Origin: a virus
DNA: 30,017 nt
Virus genome (UHGV): UHGV-0128346
Direction: 5' to 3' (one strand)
This document shows, one piece after another, positions 1,520 to 15,344 of this stretch. Both the position numbers and the translations under genes were made by a program. The notes beneath the pieces are model-generated. The model was given only the letters and a program-made list of their open reading frames with translations. It was not told where the DNA came from and searched no databases. The number at the start of each line of letters is the position of its first letter. Position 1 is the stretch's first letter.

Positions 1520-3025
1520 TCATGGCATGGCCATGAGCATTTTCACGTCCGCATCACCGTCTGCTGACGTCTGTGCCACGCCACCCTGTACCGCTGCCGG
1601 TGAATGGTTCGCCATGAAATGTTCAAACATGGCGGTTGTGGATGCAGAGACCGGTTCTGCCTTACCTGATCCCGCAGCCAGCACAGCCCGGGCGCTCTCC
1701 ACTGTCATTCCCGGGCAGGCAGCCAGCTGTTCAGCCTGCGCCTCAGCCCCTTTTGCCTCATCCAGTGCCATGATCTGATCACGGAGTGATGGTCCGGCAT
1801 CCGCCTGCGGTGAAGCAGCCAGGATCGGGCGGGCTTTTTCCACCGTCATCTCCGGCATCGCCGCCAGCGTTGCCGCCAGTTGTTCACGACCGTTCGCTTC
1901 TTCACACGCCATAATGCGATCGGCTTCACTCTGCGTGGATGCCACCGGCTGCTGCGGTGCCGCCGCGGCCAGAATCGCCCGGGCCTGTTCAACGCTCATG
2001 CCCTGTTGTCCTGCCAGCATCGTGGCAAGCTGTTCACGTCCTTTCGCTTCCTGGCATGTCAGGATCCCCATCACTCGCTGGTTCTCCTGCGCGGCGGCTT
2101 CCGTTGCAGTTAATTGCGGCATAGTGCCTCCTCTGACATTACTGTTCAGCGCCGTGGCCATCACACTGATGGCATCCGACGCATTGATTAATTCATCCGC
2201 CAGCCCGGCCTCAATGCCGGACTGACCTTCAAAAACGGCAGCCTCTGTTCCCGTGACGGCATCAACAGACAGACCGGTATACATCGCCACTTTTTCGGCA
2301 AACATCCGGCGCGCCGCATCAATCCGCTGCTGCATGTCCTGGCGAACCTCTGCCGGCAACGCTTCAAACTGATTGCCATCCACCTTGTGCGCCCCTGAGT
2401 AAATCAGCGTGATATCCACACCGGCCTGCGCCAGATGACCGGCATAGCTGACATGGCTCATCATCACGCCAATGGAGCCGATACGGGATGTCTGGGTAAC
2501 CAGCCGTCGGGAGCAGGCCGACGCCAGCAGCATGGCTGCAGAACAGGCCGTGTCATTGCACAGTGCCCAGACCGGCTTCTGCTGACGGAGGCGGTAAATC
2601 ATGTCAGCGCAGTCAAACGCGCCGGCGGCCTGCCCGCCCGGACTGTCAATGTCCAGCAGTACGCCCCGCACCTGGCTATCCGCCATTGCCTGCTGAAGAC
2701 AGGCGACAATGCCGTCATAGCCTGTCATTCCGGAAAATGGCCGCATACCACCCAGCCGGTGCACCAGCGTGCCGGTCACCGGCAGTACAGCAATACCGTT
2801 CACCACCCGGTAAACACGGGCCGGTCGTTTACCTCCGGCCATGTACTCGTCCGTTTCAGCCAGCATTCCGGGAGCATCAAACTGTACCTGCTGTTGTGGT
2901 ACCGAAAGACTTGCTGCCCCCATCTCGCGCCCGAGCGCGCAAAAGAAAACCCGCGCATAGGCGGGCTCCAGAAGCAGCGGTTCATTGAATGCTGCGGCAA
3001 TAATGTGTGAAAGATTACGTCTCAC
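1520..3025 (-). CDS. C: Head maturation protease / scaffold (lambda gpC-like S49 peptidase with nested Nu3-like C-terminal scaffold region)
   Basis: 501-aa ORF in the C position between portal and D; the C-terminal third carries three tandem ~45-aa repeats (ExxGREQLAxxLAxxxxMTVExAR), consistent with a scaffold domain. Confidence 0.8.
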   Translation of the reverse strand: MRRNLSHIIAAAFNEPLLLEPAYARVFFCALGREMGAASLSVPQQQVQFDAPGMLAETDEYMAGGKRPARVYRVVNGIAVLPVTGTLVHRLGGMRPFSGMTGYDGIVACLQQAMADSQVRGVLLDIDSPGGQAAGAFDCADMIYRLRQQKPVWALCNDTACSAAMLLASACSRRLVTQTSRIGSIGVMMSHVSYAGHLAQAGVDITLIYSGAHKVDGNQFEALPAEVRQDMQQRIDAARRMFAEKVAMYTGLSVDAVTGTEAAVFEGQSGIEAGLADELINASDAISVMATALNSNVRGGTMPQLTATEAAAQENQRVMGILTCQEAKGREQLATMLAGQQGMSVEQARAILAAAAPQQPVASTQSEADRIMACEEANGREQLAATLAAMPEMTVEKARPILAASPQADAGPSLRDQIMALDEAKGAEAQAEQLAACPGMTVESARAVLAAGSGKAEPVSASTTAMFEHFMANHSPAAVQGGVAQTSADGDADVKMLMAMP

Positions 3026-4637
3026 GTGGTGTTGTCTCCTCTTCCGGCCTGCGACTCTCCGCTATCTGCTGCTGATACGCCTGCTCTATCCACACCGGAC
3101 GTGAGAGTCCGGCTTTTTGCCGCTCAGCAGATTCCCTGACCTGCTGGCGGAAAATGTCCTGATAATCCTCGCCCATCAGCGCCAGCTCTTTCTCATACGT
3201 GCTCAGTCCGGCCTCAATGCGCATCACTGATTCCTGGACTTCCTTGAGCCCGTCAATGGCCATTCTTCCGGCACCAATCCACTCTGCCCGTGACCAGGCT
3301 GATCGCGCCTGATAAAAATCAAAACGTGCCCGTGGCGGACGAATAATCCCCCGAAGAAGTGCCTCTTCCAGCCAGCAGGAAAACATCTGCGTGGCCAGCC
3401 GGGCCGCAATAAATTTTCGCCGCCCCATAAAATAGCGCCACGACTCATTGGCGGAGGCGCGGGCACTTGAGTAACTGACCTTCGAGTAATCACGGGACAA
3501 CTGTTCGTAGGAAACGCCAAGACCGGCGGCGATATACCGCAGCAGCGCCTGTTCAAGCGCAGAAAATCCATTGTCTGAATCCTGCGCAGTCTGTAGTTTC
3601 AGATCATCACCAGGGAAAAGGTGCGGAATTTTGACACCGCCCAGTGTCACGTTATTCGTGTCATACCAGCTGGAAAACTTCTCCAGAATATTAATAAGCG
3701 GATTATCCTTCTGCTCCTGTGGCGCGCCGGCGATATATTCAAAGGCCTTTTCGGTATCAAGTTCACTTTCAATCGTCGCTGCATACATCGCCTTCACTAT
3801 GGCCGACTGAAGCTGTGTTGCCTGCAGGGAATCGAGCATCTTCAGCCGTTCCATGACGCTGTAAAACTGATTAGCCCCACGGGTCTGCCCGTCCTCCACC
3901 GGCTCGAAAATATGCAGCATGGCCGGACGCCCGGTGGGAAGTTCACGCGGGATCCGTTCCCATCGTCCACTACCAGAGAACGGAAAATCATCCTCACAGA
4001 TATGGTACGCGACGGCACGGCCATATCGATCGACCTCCACACCGGCCCGCAGAAAACGGTTCCCCATACCGTGTCCAGGCGTGTCCACCCGTTTCGGACT
4101 CACGGCTTTAAAACGCGTACGGAATAACTGCGTGGTTTCCGTATCCCAGACCGGCTGCACAAAGATTTCGCCGTTAAACGCATGAACGCCCACACCTTCA
4201 CGGATAAATTCCGTGAACGTGCGTTTTCCTTCCACGTCGATCTCGCCAAACATCCCTTCGGCGTATTCCGACCAGGCCGCCTCCACCTCATCGACAAAGC
4301 TTTTTGCTGCGGTCTCCCGCATCCCCAGCCAGCGCCAGTTCGGACGGTAGCTGATCAGAAACATATGCCCGACAATGTGATCCTTATGCAGAGCCACCGC
4401 ATTAGCCGCTATTCCGTTATTGCGCACCAGATCATCTGCCCGGGCATTCCCCAGACGCAACGCGGGCAGCAGGGCCGCATCGGCACTCTGCGCCGGTGGC
4501 AACCACTCAGCCATTTGCCCGCCAAATCCTGCACCGCCCCCGTTGTAGCTGAGACTCTCACGAAGCGGAACGCCGTTCACATCAATCAGGACAGGCGTTC
4601 GTTTCATAACCTCACTCCCAGCGGACGACGGCGACAC
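3015..4637 (-). CDS. B: Portal protein (lambda gpB-like)
   Basis: 540-aa ORF, about the size of lambda B, between W and C in conserved order. Confidence 0.88.
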   Translation of the reverse strand: MSPSSAGSEVMKRTPVLIDVNGVPLRESLSYNGGGAGFGGQMAEWLPPAQSADAALLPALRLGNARADDLVRNNGIAANAVALHKDHIVGHMFLISYRPNWRWLGMRETAAKSFVDEVEAAWSEYAEGMFGEIDVEGKRTFTEFIREGVGVHAFNGEIFVQPVWDTETTQLFRTRFKAVSPKRVDTPGHGMGNRFLRAGVEVDRYGRAVAYHICEDDFPFSGSGRWERIPRELPTGRPAMLHIFEPVEDGQTRGANQFYSVMERLKMLDSLQATQLQSAIVKAMYAATIESELDTEKAFEYIAGAPQEQKDNPLINILEKFSSWYDTNNVTLGGVKIPHLFPGDDLKLQTAQDSDNGFSALEQALLRYIAAGLGVSYEQLSRDYSKVSYSSARASANESWRYFMGRRKFIAARLATQMFSCWLEEALLRGIIRPPRARFDFYQARSAWSRAEWIGAGRMAIDGLKEVQESVMRIEAGLSTYEKELALMGEDYQDIFRQQVRESAERQKAGLSRPVWIEQAYQQQIAESRRPEEETTPRET

Positions 4638-4810: not shown

Positions 4811-6764
4811 TCACTCCTCCGGACAGCTTCGCTGCCAGTTCTTTAAGGGTTGGCCGGGTCGTCTCTTCTTCCCGGGATTTTGCCAGTACAGCCAGATCAA
4901 GCTGCCAGCGTTGCACGGACACACGTAATGCCGCGTAGGCATACACCAGGCAGTCCAGCGCTTCGTTACGCCGCTTTTTGTTATCCCACAGCAGACGCAT
5001 CTTTCCTTTTTCCCACTTCTCCACAAGCTCTTCCGCGACCAGTTGCTGCGCCTCTGTCTGCGAAAAAATCTCCGGATCATCAGGAAAACGGATAGCATAC
5101 GACGTGGCTTCATCCACAGGCGTGGGATCGGCTTTCATACGGGCATAGAGAATTTCTTTTGCGGTGTCCGTCCCCACTTCACACAGATACACGCCCCGCT
5201 GATTGCGGGTTTTTGGCATGGTGATCACCGGCTTGCCATAGACAGATGCGCCTTTTACCGGCAGCACCCGGAAAACACCGTGTTTTTTTGACCTCTGATA
5301 AACGATTTCGCCATCGATCCCCCCGATGTCCCAGCAGACACGGGAAATGGTCATTTCGGTTCCGTCTGCATGGCGGTATTTTTTGTTGATCGCCGCATCC
5401 ACACGTAACAGCGTCTCTTCCTCATCGGGACGCCCCATAATGATGATTTTATCCACCAGAAAGGCTTCCTCTCCCGGAGCCCATCCCCAGACATACATCT
5501 CAAAACGGTTTCGCTGCGAGTCAATGCCCGCCGTCAGATAAACCACCCGGGCAGGCACCGCCGCCGTGTAACGCACAACCTTATCCATCAGCACCTGGTG
5601 ATCGAGTTTTTCGCCCACAGCCTCTTCCCAGGTCTCGCCCAGCGTGGTGTTCACAAAGGTTTTCAGGCCGTTGGGATCTTTCAGTGCATCCAGCCAGTCA
5701 TAGACAATCTGTACCCAGGTGGTGAACGGACTGTACGCCGTCCAGATATGGAAAGTGATGGAGCGCGGCGGCGGAATTTCATCACCCCGGGCGCTGAAAA
5801 ACATCAGGCCGTCACGGGTCCACATGCCCGTGTTTTCACAGATCCACCGCCCGTTACTCTGGTCAAGCTCAGACTGATGGATCACACAGCCATGATGCTC
5901 ACAAAGGTAGAAAACACTTTCTGGCTTATTCTTCTCCCACTTAAGACCGAAAGGCGAGGCATCATCGCCAAATTTCAGATACTGCTCCTCCCCACAGTGC
6001 GGACAGGGCACATAAAAACGCATGAAGTGTGCCGACTCGTTAGCGGCTTTTTCGATCTGGCAGGAGCCTTTGATTTTAGGCGTCGAGCCGCGAATGGATT
6101 TTGGCCATACAGAGCCCTCAATACGTTTATCCCCCAGCAGGGTTGGCGAACCCTCTTTTTCAACATCCGGTTCGAACGAGGAAAGCTCGTCATAACAGAC
6201 CACATCCACGGATTTTTCACGGTAGTTTTTTGCTGCCGCACCACCCAGACACCAGAACCCCACACCGGAGGAAAAACGCTTCAGGGTGAGCGTATTATCG
6301 CGGTGTTTTCTTCCGAACCATGGAGCCAGCTCCAGCAATGCAGGAACATCCCTTATCGTTGGCTCAACATGAGATTTCATAAAATCTTCAGCAGCTGAGT
6401 CCGTGGGCTGAAAAAGAAGGCTGTTGCGTGATTTATGCTCAATAAAATAAGCCTCCACTCCCAGCAACATCTTTGTATAACCAACACGGGCAGATTTAAT
6501 CAGGTTAACCGTGCGAATCAGATCGTTGCCCATACAGTTCATGATGCCAACCTGAAACGGCAGTGTTTCCCATCGCCCCGGGGTATAAGACGACTCTTTA
6601 GGAAGGTAATAATGTTTATTGGCCCACTGAACTGTCGTCAGTGGAACAGGAATAATGAGAGATAAAAGCCCTGTAGCTATCGCACCGGCTGCATTAGCTG
6701 CCTTCTGCGCGTCTGAAATCATCGATCCACCCGCCCACGTTTTCACCGGCCTTAGCTGCAACAT
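4794..6764 (-). CDS. A: Terminase large subunit (lambda gpA-like)
   Basis: 656-aa ORF immediately after Nu1, size and position of lambda A; overlaps the Nu1 3' end as in lambda. Confidence 0.93.
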
Positions 6765-9001: not shown

Positions 9002-9295
9002 ATGAAAAAAATGTTGTTTTCTGCCGCTCTGGCAATGCTTATTACAGGATGTGCTCAACAGACGTTTACTGTTGGAAACAAACCGACAGCAGTAACACCA
9101 AAGGAAACCATCACCCATCATTTCTTCGTTTCGGGAATTGGGCAGAAGAAAACTGTCGATGCAGCAAAAATTTGTGGTGGTGCAGAAAATGTGGTTAAAA
9201 CAGAAACCCAGCAAACATTCGTAAATGGATTGCTCGGTTTCATCACTTTTGGCATTTATACTCCGCTGGAAGCGCGGGTGTATTGCTCAAAATAA
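9002..9295 (+). CDS. bor: Bor-like serum-resistance lipoprotein
   Basis: MKKMLFSAALAMLITGCAQQTFTV...ICGGAENVVKTETQQTFVNGLLGFIT matches recalled lambda Bor almost residue for residue; opposite strand to the lysis genes, as in lambda. Confidence 0.9.
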   Translation: MKKMLFSAALAMLITGCAQQTFTVGNKPTAVTPKETITHHFFVSGIGQKKTVDAAKICGGAENVVKTETQQTFVNGLLGFITFGIYTPLEARVYCSK

Positions 9296-11010: not shown

Positions 11011-11226
11011 TTACTCTCCTCTCGCAGCCTTTCTTCTGTCTTCTCTGATTTTGAAGTACAGATTCGTCAGATAAGTCAGAAAGCCCAGAACCAGACTTCC
11101 CAGTACACCAATCGCAGCCCACTGAGACGGACTAACCTGATCAAGCCATTGTAAAAACCAGTAGCCAGCACTGCCTGCGGAGGTGCCGTAGGCAATGCCT
11201 GTTGATATTTTTTCCATCTGATACAT
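11011..11226 (-). CDS. S: Pinholin (phage 21 S-type holin), dual-start MYQMEK
   Basis: From Met25 the ORF reads [66 protein letters not shown], essentially the S21 sequence as recalled; two closely spaced Met codons. Confidence 0.85.
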
Positions 11227-11356
11227 ATCCCGCCCCAACAGACCTGTGCTACCGGAAAGAAAAAAGGCCATCAGCAAAACTCTGATGGCCTGAATCACCT
11301 TTACCAGTCATGTATGAAAAAATACGCACAACCAATTGACAATAATTATCATTTTC

Positions 11357-11682: not shown

Positions 11683-11740
11683 TTCCTTGCCGCCCGTGCC
11701 TCCCAGCGCGGGCTTTTTTATCCAAAAAATACCCCTCCGG
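11683..11740. terminator. Back-to-back intrinsic terminators sharing a T6/A6 tract (plus-strand hairpin ~11683-11704, minus-strand hairpin ~11721-11740)
   Basis: GCCCG...CGGGC followed by TTTTTT on the plus strand; TACCCCTC-CGGA-GAGGGGTA preceded by AAAAAA on the plus strand, i.e. followed by U6 on the minus strand. Confidence 0.6.
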
Positions 11741-12028
11741 AGAGGGGTATCATACAAGGGGATGACCATGATGCATGGTGCCGGGTGCCTCCCGGTGAGT
11801 CCGGCATCAGCATACGAACCCGCGATTATCCCAGAACTGACTGCTGATTCGCCCCGCCGCTTAGGGGGATTCACCATGCGTTTTTTTATTTACAAACTCT
11901 TCGCCAGACAAACAACCATTAACTGGCTGAATTGTGAGGTATTTCAATTTTTAGAAAACTGACCAACCTCCGCTTATACGCCGGGCATGGAGCGGATACA
12001 AAAAAGCCCCGCAAAAGCAGATCAGAAG

Positions 12029-12069
12029 GATTCGTTGTAAAAAAAAAGCTGTCAGATTATCGCGCTAAT
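12029..12069 (-). terminator. Intrinsic terminator downstream of the beta-class methyltransferase
   Basis: Perfect 13-bp inverted repeat AGCTGTCAGATTA-TCGCGC-TAATCTGACAGCT, followed by a T-run of 8 or more on the minus strand. Confidence 0.7.
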
Positions 12070-12319
12070 CTGACAGCTACAGCAGGTATCCAAAAACATG
12101 GGTGGAAACAATAAGTGAGTTAAGAAGACACGGTGTCGGATTTTTACCGATGAGCCGTTGGCGTGGTCAACCGTGACTCGCTTGTATCAACGATGAATTA
12201 ATGAAGCCAATCCTTTGCAGGCTATGTACAACCCACCACATCAGCCCTGCTGCATTGCAGGATACACTGTATCTGTAATCATTATACGGCACAGACATCC
12301 CACCAATAATTGAATTAAT

Positions 12320-13381
12320 TCACAAAATTGTATTTGCTGATAACATACTGATTTCCTGGATGGTCTGATTAAACCGCTCTGTCTCAAGCTCAACACCTAA
12401 CGCCCGACGCCCCAGCGCCATTGCTGCTTTTATTGTGGAACCGGATCCCATAAAGAAATCAGCAACCAGATCGCCGGGTCGACTACTGGCATTGATTATT
12501 TGCCTGAGCATATCCGCCGGTTTCTCACACGGATGTTTACCCGGGTAGAACTGAACGGGTTTATGCATCCAGACATCGGTATAAGGCACGGAGACTGATA
12601 CGGAGAAATAGCGCCGGAGAGATTTAAACTCATCCAGCAATTCAGAATATTTGCGATTCAGTGAATCATAAGATGCCACCAACTGGTGGTGTGGTTGTTC
12701 CAGTTGTTGTTCCTGAAACTTCTCTGCCGCTATACGGGAAAACAGTGCCTGTAACTTCCGGTAGTCAGCCTCATTCGGCAACTGCCACTGACTGGCACCA
12801 AACCAGTGGGAAACCATATTTTTCTTACCTGTGGCTTCGGCAATTTGTTTTGCCGTTATACCCAGTTCGGCACGAGCATCCCTGAAATACGATATCAGCG
12901 GTGCCATTATGTGCTGTTTGAGTTCCCTTTCTTTTGCCACATAGCCGTCACTTTTGCCGCGATATGGCCCCCGGTAATGTTCAGCAAACAGAACGCGCTC
13001 TGTGGCAGGAAAATATGCGCGCAGACTTTCTTTATTACACCCATTCCAACGTCCGGACGGCTTCGCCCAGATGATATGGTTAAGCACGTTGAAACGTTCA
13101 CGCATCATGATCTCAATATCAGATGCCAGGCGATGCCCACAGAACAGGTAAAGGCTTCCGGCAGGTTTCAACACCCGCCAGAACTGGGCCAGACAGTGGT
13201 CCAGCCACTTAAGGTAATCTTCGTCCCCTTTCCACTGATTGTCCCAACCGTTGGGTTTCACCTTGAAGTAAGGCGGATCGGTAACAATCAGGTCAATGGA
13301 ATCATCAGGCAGGGACTGAATAAAATGCAGGCAATCAGCGTTGATTAAATCAATACTGTTTATTTTTACAGTGTTTTTCAT
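12320..13381 (-). CDS. DNA methyltransferase, beta-class (N6-adenine or N4-cytosine); motif IV DPPY near N-terminus, motif I FxGxG near C-terminus
   Basis: 353 aa; LIVTDPPYF at residues ~31-39 and DFFMGSGST near the C-terminus give the beta-class motif order; no adjacent restriction enzyme recognised. Confidence 0.85.
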   Translation of the reverse strand: MKNTVKINSIDLINADCLHFIQSLPDDSIDLIVTDPPYFKVKPNGWDNQWKGDEDYLKWLDHCLAQFWRVLKPAGSLYLFCGHRLASDIEIMMRERFNVLNHIIWAKPSGRWNGCNKESLRAYFPATERVLFAEHYRGPYRGKSDGYVAKERELKQHIMAPLISYFRDARAELGITAKQIAEATGKKNMVSHWFGASQWQLPNEADYRKLQALFSRIAAEKFQEQQLEQPHHQLVASYDSLNRKYSELLDEFKSLRRYFSVSVSVPYTDVWMHKPVQFYPGKHPCEKPADMLRQIINASSRPGDLVADFFMGSGSTIKAAMALGRRALGVELETERFNQTIQEISMLSANTIL

Positions 13382-13530
13382 GGATCAGTAAGCGTAACTC
13401 TGGTAGGCTCACTCTGCTTTTGCGCTAAAGCAGTGGGCCATGGTTCGCTTGTGACCAGTAAGCATGAGCGAATGGCTGGCAGGTGCTACCAACACCCACC
13501 AGCCGCCCATTTTCACAAATTAAAAGCCCT

Positions 13531-13725
13531 TCATTGCTGAAGGCGTCTGTAACAGCCGAACTGGTAATCTGCCAGCCCCGCCATAACCAGCTGGGTCAGT
13601 ATTAACTGACAGCGTTCGCGTGAAAGGTATGTGTTTTGTGCTATCTCCCCGACTGTTGCCGGTTTGCCGTTTAATTCATTAAAAACAACTTTCGCCGTTT
13701 CTGTCATATCTTGCTGTTTTAGCAT
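13531..13725 (-). CDS. Hypothetical small wHTH-like DNA-binding protein (64 aa)
   Basis: ATVGEIAQNTYLSRERCQLILTQLVMAGLA resembles a helix-turn-helix; ~150 nt upstream of the methyltransferase on the same strand. Confidence 0.35.
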   Translation of the reverse strand: MLKQQDMTETAKVVFNELNGKPATVGEIAQNTYLSRERCQLILTQLVMAGLADYQFGCYRRLQQ

Positions 13726-13840
13726 GTCTTTTTACCTTCATGGTTAACATGACATACCAATAACTCTTGTCTAAAAAGCCAGCAAGATAAAAAGTCAGTA
13801 TTCACGACCACCAGCGTGTTTACCGTACTGCACCAATGTT

Positions 13841-13870
13841 TAATTTATAAAAAAACCGCGAGAACGCGGT
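13841..13870 (-). terminator. Intrinsic terminator after the 176-aa cargo ORF
   Basis: ACCGCG-AGAA-CGCGGT hairpin followed by a U-rich tract on the minus strand. Confidence 0.6.
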
Positions 13871-13906
13871 AAGTATTGTTAAAAAAAAACAGTAATTTCA
13901 CTCAAC

Positions 13907-14437
13907 TTATTTAATACATTCTTTTGCTTGCGCATAATAAATTTTATGAGTATTAGCAAGCTTAACGAAGTTATACTTAACTGCCCCTAACAGGGTTCCA
14001 ACTCTTGTATGCCCTTCCATTAAATGAAGCCCTGTTGTATTACTTTTCAGCAAAGCTCGATCTATAAAAAATGGAGGTTCACACCATGTGCCAAAATTAC
14101 ACCAATGCGCTTTTATTTCATCATCCATAAATACATCGCCTTTACGGGTTGTGAAATCTTCAACGACCTCATGCAAAAAATCAGGGTAAGTAGCATTATC
14201 CCCGATAGTTAAAAAATTTTTAGTGGGAAGTTCAATCAATTTCCATTCGATTTGGTCAATATTAAGATCCCCATAAAGCTCCTGAAATCTGTCATAACCT
14301 GCCAATCCATAATAAATCTCCTGAATTACAGGAGTGGGGGCGGCGATAGAATATTGCTCACGAAGTATTCTTTCAGCCTCAGGAGCTTTAAATATGGGTC
14401 TTTCTGAGAAAATAGGCAAAAGATCTCGGTATAACAT
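13907..14437 (-). CDS. Hypothetical protein (176 aa), AT-rich cargo gene immediately downstream of PR'/tR'
   Basis: GGGGA ribosome-binding site 6 nt before the ATG; GC estimated by eye at ~36%, clearly below the surrounding phage DNA; flanked by intrinsic terminators; no signal peptide; no family recognised. Confidence 0.6.
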   Translation of the reverse strand: MLYRDLLPIFSERPIFKAPEAERILREQYSIAAPTPVIQEIYYGLAGYDRFQELYGDLNIDQIEWKLIELPTKNFLTIGDNATYPDFLHEVVEDFTTRKGDVFMDDEIKAHWCNFGTWCEPPFFIDRALLKSNTTGLHLMEGHTRVGTLLGAVKYNFVKLANTHKIYYAQAKECIK

Positions 14438-14450
14438 CCATATCCCCGTG

Positions 14451-14486
14451 TAAGAAAAAATAATTTAACCCGCTCGGCGGCGGGTT
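14451..14486 (-). terminator. tR'-like intrinsic terminator downstream of Q and the PR'-like promoter
   Basis: AACCCGC-TCGGCG-GCGGGTT hairpin followed by AAATTATTTTTT on the minus strand, ~110 nt after the Q stop. Confidence 0.6.
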
Positions 14487-14531
14487 CTTGGACTCATCAA
14501 CGGTAGACATACAAAGCCCATCGTTGGGAAA

Positions 14532-14560
14532 ATCTTATCCATATTTTTTGAGAAATGCAA
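14532..14560 (-). promoter_or_regulatory. Candidate late promoter PR' (TTGCAT-N17-TAAGAT, minus strand), presumed Q-utilisation region
   Basis: Sigma70-like hexamers with 17-nt spacing, 30-60 nt downstream of the Q stop and upstream of the tR'-like terminator; the lambda-style arrangement. Confidence 0.4.
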
Positions 14561-14591
14561 GCATCATGTCGCCATCTTCGGTGAAAATCAC

Positions 14592-15344
14592 TTATCTCGT
14601 CACCTTTCTCAATTGTGCTTCAGCGAATGCTTCTTCCTGCCAGCACTTTGTTACCAGTTTATCAATGACGTCTGCATATCCTTTGTACCACTGATAATCA
14701 GTCAGGTCTGGTACCAGCTTCTGGACATGACGTCGTGCCAGTGTGGTCGGTAAACGACTAAACCGGTTTCCATTGCAACGCCCACAAATCTTATAAACAG
14801 GCGCGCCATGAAGCCGGGTTCTTTTTTCATCCAGGACAATGCCTTTACCCTTACACCCTCTGCAAGCCGTGCTGACTTCTCCCTTACCATGGCAATGCTG
14901 ACATAATTCCTTCACCCACTCTTCCTTGATAACAGATTCCCCGCTTCTGGAGTGTTTCACCACTTCGCGCAATACACTATGAAATCCAGTACCAGCACAA
15001 TGCTCACAGCGAGCCTTACTTGCCGCAGACCTGGAATAATCAGCAAAGGCAAAACTCACAAGGTAAGGGATGATCTGTAACCGGGTTTCTTCACTCAATT
15101 TGTTCAATGTCGGGTTATCCATTGCCATCGCGTAATTGAGCAGACCTTCAATCGCAAACTGAGGATCCTGAACACCAACTTTTGCCAGGAATAAGGCAAA
15201 CCCAAGCGGTGCTTTCGACTGCACCATCCCCTGCGCAGCCATCACATCCGTAATCGTTAAACCACCTGAGCCTGTCGCCGGTGCGTCATCGCTCAATTTT
15301 GGAGATTTTGGGGAGTAATATTTTGGTAAGGCTTCAAGGTTCAT
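14592..15344 (-). CDS. Q: Late-gene antiterminator Q (lambda Q family, 250 aa)
   Basis: Matches recalled lambda Q: YYSPKSPKLSDDAPATGSGGLTITDVMAAQGM, FAFADYSRSAASKARCEHCAGTG, C-terminal ...VTR; Cys-rich zinc-binding motifs; same length as the Qin prophage homologue. Confidence 0.85.
   Translation of the reverse strand: MNLEALPKYYSPKSPKLSDDAPATGSGGLTITDVMAAQGMVQSKAPLGFALFLAKVGVQDPQFAIEGLLNYAMAMDNPTLNKLSEETRLQIIPYLVSFAFADYSRSAASKARCEHCAGTGFHSVLREVVKHSRSGESVIKEEWVKELCQHCHGKGEVSTACRGCKGKGIVLDEKRTRLHGAPVYKICGRCNGNRFSRLPTTLARRHVQKLVPDLTDYQWYKGYADVIDKLVTKCWQEEAFAEAQLRKVTR

Follow-up and report, generated by a model that had tools for sequence, protein, structure and literature searches.

A cargo slot behind the late antiterminator of an Escherichia coli lambdoid prophage holds two independent modules, one of them encoding a protein of predicted ParB/sulfiredoxin-type fold

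The stretch of DNA analyzed here (the window; 30,017 nucleotides, virus genome UHGV-0128346) is an E. coli lambdoid prophage, and between 12000 and 14900 it matches chromosomes of ExPEC (extraintestinal pathogenic E. coli) strains, for example, IHE3034, with 100% identity. Behind its late antiterminator gene Q lie a 176-amino-acid (aa) open reading frame (ORF), ORF176, a 64-aa ORF, ORF64, and a beta-class DNA methyltransferase gene. An earlier note on this DNA, made from the letters alone, proposed that ORF176 might encode a small nuclease paired with the methyltransferase in a compact restriction-modification (R-M) or methyltransferase-linked defence cassette. This raises two questions: do these genes form one unit, and what kind of protein is ORF176? 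The explanation that we favor, with a probability of about 55% for the whole of it, is that the region comprises two modules and that ORF176 is not a nuclease but a stand-alone nucleotide-binding protein with a ParB/sulfiredoxin (Srx) fold. The analysis itself establishes how the locus is built, that the two modules are inherited separately, that the fold is similar, and that the motif is conserved; nucleotide binding, the time of expression, and the biological role are inferred from these results.

The slot behind Q holds two independently inherited modules

Q, ORF176, ORF64, and the methyltransferase gene are all carried on the minus strand, and these genes and a tR'-like hairpin were found as the earlier note described them. 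The features of the slot, of which Q is the upstream edge, are listed below.

14592-15344, minus strand: late antiterminator Q, 250 aa (PF03589, 1.7e-53; phrog_127; annotated as 'antitermination protein' in NC_017628)
14532-14560, minus strand: candidate PR' promoter, as read from the sequence (TTGCAT, 17-nt spacer, TAAGAT)
14467-14486, minus strand: tR'-like hairpin (-11.7 kcal/mol)
13858-14466, minus strand: AT-rich cargo cassette (moron) of 609 bp with a ribosome-binding site, ORF176, and a terminator, delimited by BLASTN breakpoints and GC content
13907-14437, minus strand: ORF176, 176 aa; N-terminus helical (~1-60), core of predicted ParB/Srx type (~62-172)
14003-14017, minus strand: codons of E141-G-H-T-R145, near-invariant in alignments of the family; candidate GxxR motif (Box II)
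13855-13870, minus strand: intrinsic terminator of the ORF176 cassette, ACCGCGTTCTCGCGGT followed by T7 (z = -2.8)
13531-13725, minus strand: ORF64 (phrog_331, 5.8e-35), possibly a winged-helix protein
12320-13381, minus strand: beta-class N6/N4 DNA methyltransferase, 353 aa (PF01555, 4.6e-42)
12047-12078, minus strand: strong intrinsic terminator past the methyltransferase gene (13-bp stem followed by T9, -20 kcal/mol, z = -4.5)

The whole interval had been described as an AT-rich island. This holds for the ORF176 cassette, whose GC content is 0.365 (0.28 at third codon positions), but not for ORF64 (0.467) and the methyltransferase gene (0.477), which resemble Q (0.478) and the holin gene (0.483). 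Since AT-richness is confined to the cassette, the island measures 609 bp, not 2.3 kb. Its breakpoints were mapped by BLASTN against two related prophages. In one of them (L017, NZ_AP027783) the site is empty, and the tR' hairpin with its T7 tract directly joins the sequence upstream of ORF64; in the other (L018, NZ_AP023230) an unrelated 141-aa ORF (WP_063090559) occupies the slot of ORF176 (3007-3676). The position behind Q/tR' thus appears to be a recurrent cargo site. The 141-aa ORF has a lipoprotein-like N-terminus and is flanked on either side by a near-identical copy of the tR' hairpin.

The ORF176 cassette is a discrete indel with exact breakpoints, deviant GC content, and a terminator of its own (the hairpin and T7 tract at 13870-13855, as the earlier note had seen), and it is absent from collinear relatives. 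In position, composition, possession of a terminator, and presence/absence and replacement among relatives, it resembles the known morons between Q and the holin gene of lambdoid phages (stx, tRNA genes, and the nanS-p type); it differs from them in that it lacks an evident promoter and breaks the U-tract of tR'. We propose that this 609-bp AT-rich moron was inserted exactly at the tR' hairpin, bringing in ORF176 together with its terminator.

The distribution of the two modules differs as well. Of 5426 complete E. coli genomes, 90 carry ORF176 DNA; the identity of 82 of these copies at 99% or more indicates one recently spread prophage. In a sample drawn by rank from the 3774 records that match some part of the 2.9-kb region, matches to 12363-13859 alone, that is, to ORF64 and the methyltransferase gene, reach far down and include O157:H7. 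The ORF64-methyltransferase module is therefore far commoner than ORF176, and most of its carriers are devoid of ORF176. In the O157:H7 prophage (L058, NZ_CP040107, 4188-4420), a 65-aa ORF64 homologue and the methyltransferase gene are preceded by a gene for a DUF1133 protein, not by a Q of the window's type, and are followed by tRNA-Ile, tRNA-Arg, a DUF6645 gene, and the holin gene. The tRNA-Ile/tRNA-Arg arrangement is a classic neighbor of the stx position, and the tRNA genes beside the same module bear out the earlier view of this interval as the slot for cargo that separates Q/tR' from the lysis genes. A tRNA scan of the whole window, unlike its O157:H7 counterpart, revealed no tRNA gene. 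The slot therefore holds two independent modules, ORF64-methyltransferase and the ORF176 moron, in an overall architecture that is ordinary, textbook phage mosaicism.

ORF176 belongs to a widespread family with a predicted ParB/Srx-type core

ORF176 has no match among the Pfam, NCBIfam, and PADLOC v2.0 models, in keeping with its earlier description as foreign cargo of no recognized family; its sole library match is PHROG 8867 (unknown function), and a literature search with its protein accession (WP_000966854) returned no paper. The 22 close homologues are enterobacterial proteins. When 1.84 billion cluster representatives were searched with a profile, 286 family members were retrieved at E<=1e-3, from which we conclude that ORF176 is a real gene, and a second profile search gave 337 family representatives. 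Their sources include Endozoicomonas, Halarcobacter, Colwellia, Psychromonas, Chromobacterium, Planctomycetota, cyanobacteria, and Opitutus; the family reaches from enterobacterial prophages to marine Gammaproteobacteria, Planctomycetota, and cyanobacteria. One cyanobacterial metagenome-assembled genome (L022, 5823-7345) carries two tandem paralogues of 172 and 194 aa. In an alignment of 104 sequences, W65, W112, W118, L139, E141, G142, H143, R145, L149, and H164 are invariant and T117, P122, T144, and G147 nearly so. The pentapeptide EGHTR was found in most family members by a motif census and is invariant or nearly so in three alignments (A1, A2, and A3). Ten longer members (~260-360 aa) showed no informative domain in Pfam; their C-terminal extensions look helical.

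The earlier note had suggested fold searches on a model of ORF176. A confident structure model was obtained, and the leading matches in both fold searches were all of ParB/Srx type, with no endonuclease fold among them. SspE, Osa, Atu1540, and Spo0J, which all have the ParB/Srx fold, appeared lower in the list of the structural search; among viral models searched with Foldseek, proteins labeled 'ParB/Sulfiredoxin' dominate, with weak E-values (best 0.014, probability 0.92). The model contains the core of strand, helix, strand, strand, helix, and strand by which the fold is recognized: strand 63-71, helices 85-97 and 106-115, a loop G-T-W-x-E-P-P, strand 123-126, strand 137-141, G142-H-T-R145 opening helix 143-154, and strand 163-171. 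This order mirrors that of human Srx (…VPPIDVLWI…YFYSFGGCHRYAAYQQL…TIPAKLVQ, verified against PDB 1yzs), which runs strand, helix, PPIDV-type strand, strand, G-x-x-R, helix, strand. The conserved residues W112, T117-W118, and P122 lie in the helix and loop ahead of EGHTR. According to Kaljevic et al. (2025; PMC12704722), Box I of ParB-type proteins is a base-contacting helix with its loop, and Box II is a GxxR phosphate motif; judged by the order of secondary structure elements, W112, T117-W118, P122, and E141-G-H-T-R145 would occupy the Box I and Box II positions. On this basis, ORF176 probably binds a nucleotide; the same authors describe even AlphaFold3 docking as unreliable for nucleotide specificity.

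Several points weigh against this assignment. The equivalence of EGHTR and GxxR is drawn from secondary structure order, with no residue-level superposition; Box III is not evident in ORF176, and neither is the arginine that follows the first strand of ParB proteins. Orphan ParB-like proteins frequently lack Box III (PMC12704722). Searches with family profiles against PDB sequences gave nothing relevant, a Pfam scan of 101 family members (E<=1) gave no match to the ParB clan but only scattered weak matches to CUE and DUF1281, so that homology of the PF02195 type went undetected, and hmmsearch --max against Srx and Spo0J was negative. The hhalign comparison with human Srx and an Srx family profile yielded a probability of <0.1, in what was a weak test given a vertebrate-heavy and narrow Srx alignment. 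Because every sequence-level test was negative, the assignment is one of fold; at that level, the model makes it likely that the C-terminal ~110 residues of ORF176 adopt the ParB/Srx (ParB-CTPase) fold.

Compared with the ParB/Srx superfamily (PF02195 and relatives, i.e., ParB, Noc, PadC, Srx, SerK/SbnI, DndB/DUF262, and Osa), the ORF176 family is predicted to have a like core topology, with an invariant G-x-x-R where a strand passes into a helix and, ahead of it, a conserved helix-loop closing in Pro-Pro (cf. 'VPPIDV' of Srx). It differs in an extra ~60-residue N-terminal helical part, in the lack of detectable sequence or profile similarity, and in the absence of Box III and of a ParA or parS context; moreover, no helix-turn-helix, dimerization, or nuclease domain was detected in ORF176. 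As in sulfiredoxin and the single-domain ParB-fold phage proteins of about 100 aa (PMC12704722), a small stand-alone protein would have the fold as its functional unit, and GHTR of ORF176 would stand at the position of GCHR of Srx. Unlike sulfiredoxin, ORF176 has His in place of the catalytic Cys, occurs in bacteria and prophages, and has no link to peroxiredoxin. The new element here is thus probably an uncharacterized protein family of ParB/Srx fold, as judged from the model. The published survey of ParB folds started from PF02195 (PMC12704722) and would therefore have missed this family. The ParB-CTPase/Srx fold is now being redefined as a versatile nucleoside triphosphate switch, and the ORF176 family (about 290-340 clusters), if confirmed, would extend its known reach.

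ORF176 homologues have no fixed partner

Gene neighborhoods were likewise compared as the earlier note had proposed, and ORF176 homologues proved to have no fixed methyltransferase partner. In enterobacterial prophages their conserved neighbors are Q upstream and the lysis genes downstream, and the adjacent Q belongs either to PF03589 or to PF06323, which are unrelated families. These constant neighbors mark ORF176 as a moron in the first position after Q/tR' rather than as a partner of the methyltransferase. The only other lineage with the methyltransferase gene downstream is Hafnia, where an additional gene on the opposite strand intervenes; no homologue of this methyltransferase was found near the ORF176 homologues of Salmonella, of Klebsiella/Citrobacter-type prophages, of P0006, or of any of the 55 distant loci, and these 55 loci share no conserved neighbor at all.

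The surroundings of the distant homologues hint at defence islands, of which they are typical. Family members adjoin a KAP NTPase, a T5orf172-FtsK protein, Mrr, an Eco57I/MmeI-type enzyme, an AAA_21 ATPase, or a pPIWI-associated nuclease, and some adjoin toxin-antitoxin pairs or mobile-element genes. In Chromobacterium haemolyticum (L027, NZ_JONK01000014, 3019-9734), a 169-aa member lies within a type I R-M operon in the order hsdM-hsdS-[169-aa member]-hsdR, with overlaps of 14 and 16 nt. Type I R-M operons with an accessory gene between hsdS and hsdR are known from the PrrC-type arrangement. The C. haemolyticum member is likewise translationally coupled between the two genes, but it is unrelated to PrrC in sequence and fold. 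In two other lineages (L055, ~6520-6585; L015, ~6525-6590), a conserved long hairpin, AGCACATTAC…CCAACTAACC…GGTGGTTTGTTGGGTAGTGTGCT, directly follows the ORF176 homologue on its 3' side (~-32 to -36 kcal/mol for a folded 110-nt stretch); having no U-tract, it is unlike a standard terminator.

The cassette interrupts the U-tract of the tR'-like hairpin

The 154-nt spacer between Q and ORF176 contains the candidate PR' and a GC-rich hairpin. The candidate PR' scores under the threshold of a simple promoter scan, and its region is 90-91% conserved in related prophages. The ORF176 start codon lies only 29 nt past the tR' hairpin, and the cassette has no promoter-like site on the minus strand; this proximity suggests that ORF176 depends on PR' and would be the first product of the PR' late transcript. 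The tR' placed ahead of ORF176 by the earlier note is present as a hairpin (14486-14467), but its U-tract is interrupted: the sequence reads …GCGGGTT up to the cassette junction and AAATTATTTTTT beyond it, where the empty-site prophage L017 has GGGTTTTTTT. The interruption was found in all 15 ORF176-positive E. coli loci (L033-L045, L059, and L060), and in a sublineage of 94% identity the tR' stem is mutated as well. The hairpin and T7 tract at the cassette end are identical in the 14 of these loci that reach them (the fifteenth ends before). In the Klebsiella/Citrobacter-type prophages, an intact hairpin with U6 lies ~25 nt ahead of the ORF176 homologue, from which Q-dependent late expression would follow there.

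These features suggest a route by which cargo may be expressed in lysogens. The locus also provides a clean natural experiment: among otherwise near-identical prophages of clinical ExPEC strains such as IHE3034, some carry ORF176 in the slot, some carry a different gene there, and some have no insert.

Candidate roles of ORF176

The nuclease proposal drew on a YPD…DDEIK pattern in a single sequence and on the adjacency of the methyltransferase gene, and these two points make up the whole case for it. The pattern is not borne out as a PD-(D/E)xK motif: even the closest homologues differ at positions 106-109, part of DDEIK, and conservation does not extend to the lysine. D105 is nearly invariant in the deep alignment only; in the alignment of close homologues, the conserved Asp of the family falls two residues upstream of it, with uncertain column placement. 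The confident model and both fold searches are of ParB/Srx type, with no restriction-endonuclease fold among the leading matches, ORF176 has no PADLOC match, and scans with Pfam, PADLOC, and NCBIfam detected no nuclease domain in ORF176 or ORF64 that could provide the methyltransferase with a partner. A type II R-M system would have a cognate endonuclease co-inherited with its methyltransferase; here, the genes occur apart. We therefore reject the PD-(D/E)xK nuclease on motif conservation and fold, and regard a compact R-M or methyltransferase-linked defence pair as extremely improbable. A different tie to the methyltransferase would be that of a ParB-like accessory, either as the split form of a ParB-fold/N6_N4 fusion or as an activator. 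Prophages are enriched in fusions of a ParB fold with a PF01555 methyltransferase (PMC12704722), a thymine dioxygenase, which modifies phage DNA, is activated by a stand-alone ParB (PMC13229309), and ORF176 lies ~0.5 kb upstream of a PF01555 enzyme, as it does in the independent Hafnia lineage; a predicted ParB-type fold is here likewise encoded beside a DNA-modifying enzyme. Unlike those cases, ORF176 is neither fused to nor co-inherited with the methyltransferase, from which a terminator and ORF64 separate it; composition sets the two units apart, the methyltransferase module has a far wider distribution and also stands beside the empty slot, the homologues listed above have no methyltransferase homologue nearby, and the co-occurrence in E. 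coli reflects the spread of a single prophage. An obligate partnership is rejected on the mosaic and census evidence, and an accessory role seems quite improbable.

The reading that we prefer, a ParB/Srx-fold protein with no fixed partner, would make ORF176 a stand-alone nucleotide-binding switch or a small phosphotransfer-type enzyme comparable to Srx or SerK. Since distant homologues lie among defence genes, one of them in translational coupling within a type I R-M operon, we tentatively favor a part in conflict between phage and host or between phages; the effector, toxin, or anti-defence protein of the late operon that the earlier note named as its fallback is also a candidate. A defence-type role can be put forward tentatively; two points count against it, namely that the R-M-embedded member is a single case (a search of the loci analyzed with the L027 Hsd proteins gave no other) and that the late, lytic-phase expression implied by an intact terminator ahead of the gene in the other enterobacterial lineages fits poorly with a defence that protects the lysogen. 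It may also be that, in this E. coli lineage, the cassette has captured the constitutive PR' transcript: the original tR' would be crippled, the terminator at the cassette end would act in its place, and ORF176, the protein-coding counterpart of the short PR'-tR' RNA, would be produced in lysogens and serve lysogenic conversion or defence. In lysogens PR' is active constitutively, and StxS shows that the short transcript from it can have a function (PMC7547250); the interrupted U-tract, the mutated stem of the sublineage, the invariant hairpin and T7 tract downstream, and the lack of room for a separate promoter in the 29 nt before ORF176 all agree with such a shift. The Klebsiella/Citrobacter-type homologues, which stand behind an intact hairpin and U6, speak against it, termination at the A/U-rich tail may persist, and in the simple scan the hairpin continues to score as a terminator; on balance, this seems somewhat unlikely. 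A further reading, also unlikely, is that ORF176 represents an unrecognized, sequence-orphan branch of the ParB/Srx fold that works as a single-gene module for conflict, either defence or counter-defence; it would be carried in the PR'-tR' leader position of lambdoid prophages, in this E. coli lineage perhaps turning the constitutive short late RNA into an mRNA, and would occur in defence islands as well, including the type I R-M operon. Yet another reading is a late-expressed counter-defence or DNA-transaction factor that aids the phage after induction, perhaps through protection or processing of progeny DNA. In enterobacterial prophages, ORF176 invariably comes first behind Q/tR', whichever of the two Q families is present, and anti-defence roles have been proposed for ParB-fold domains in phage proteins (PMC12704722); set against this, the distant homologues are chromosomal, one of them lies inside a host type I R-M operon, where an anti-restriction protein would not be expected, and no DNA-binding domain was detected in ORF176. 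We consider counter-defence unlikely.

ORF64 and the methyltransferase

The methyltransferase matches PF01555 with 144.9 bits (cut-off 26.7), and its DPPY (motif IV, residue 35) precedes FMGSG (motif I, FxGxG, residue 310), which is the beta-class order and confirms the earlier class assignment. PADLOC matched it to type II methyltransferase models only (MTase_II PDLC03265, 8e-151), and its score against NCBIfam PRK11524 (adenine-specific DNA-methyltransferase), 109.8 bits, is under the cut-off of 292. It is an ordinary, widespread orphan beta-class enzyme of lambdoid prophages. The terminator ascribed to the gene exists and is strong (12078-12047), but it lies 240 nt past the stop codon. A mosaic boundary was located at ~12363, inside the 3' end of the gene, where homology to most other prophages begins; the last ~14 codons and the 240-nt stretch up to the terminator therefore represent a different segment.

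ORF64 accompanies the methyltransferase gene in E. coli, O157:H7, and Hafnia, and the window's allele of it also occurs in prophages without ORF176. It is 52% identical in aa sequence to a 67-aa ORF of L017 (3033-3236) within flanks of ~94% identity, and likewise in L018; ORF64 thus reads as an allelic replacement relative to these prophages. The ORF itself was found as the earlier note described it. Its winged helix-turn-helix character is weakly indicated by sub-threshold Pfam matches alone (TrmB, 0.0074, 16.6 bits against a cut-off of 25.6; MarR_2, 0.016; DprA_WH, 0.038), and ORF64 had no match in the PADLOC scan or in a search of PDB sequences.

Other features between the methyltransferase and iss

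Beyond the methyltransferase terminator, two further features lead up to the lysis genes.

11720-11908, minus strand: small RNA (sRNA) STnc100 (RF02076), full-length match (114.5 bits, gathering score 47)
11011-11298, minus strand: P21-type holin

STnc100 sits between the methyltransferase terminator and the holin gene, and a 2026 preprint relates it to the PasD sRNAs of Stx-type prophages. A match to the SgrS model (24.8 bits, gathering score 37; 11260-11356, minus strand) overlaps the start of the holin gene and is probably due to chance. The increased serum survival gene iss, which encodes a Bor-like lipoprotein, was placed at ~9002-9295 on the plus strand by correspondence with the IHE3034 annotation; it lies in a GC dip (0.42) on the strand opposite to the late genes.

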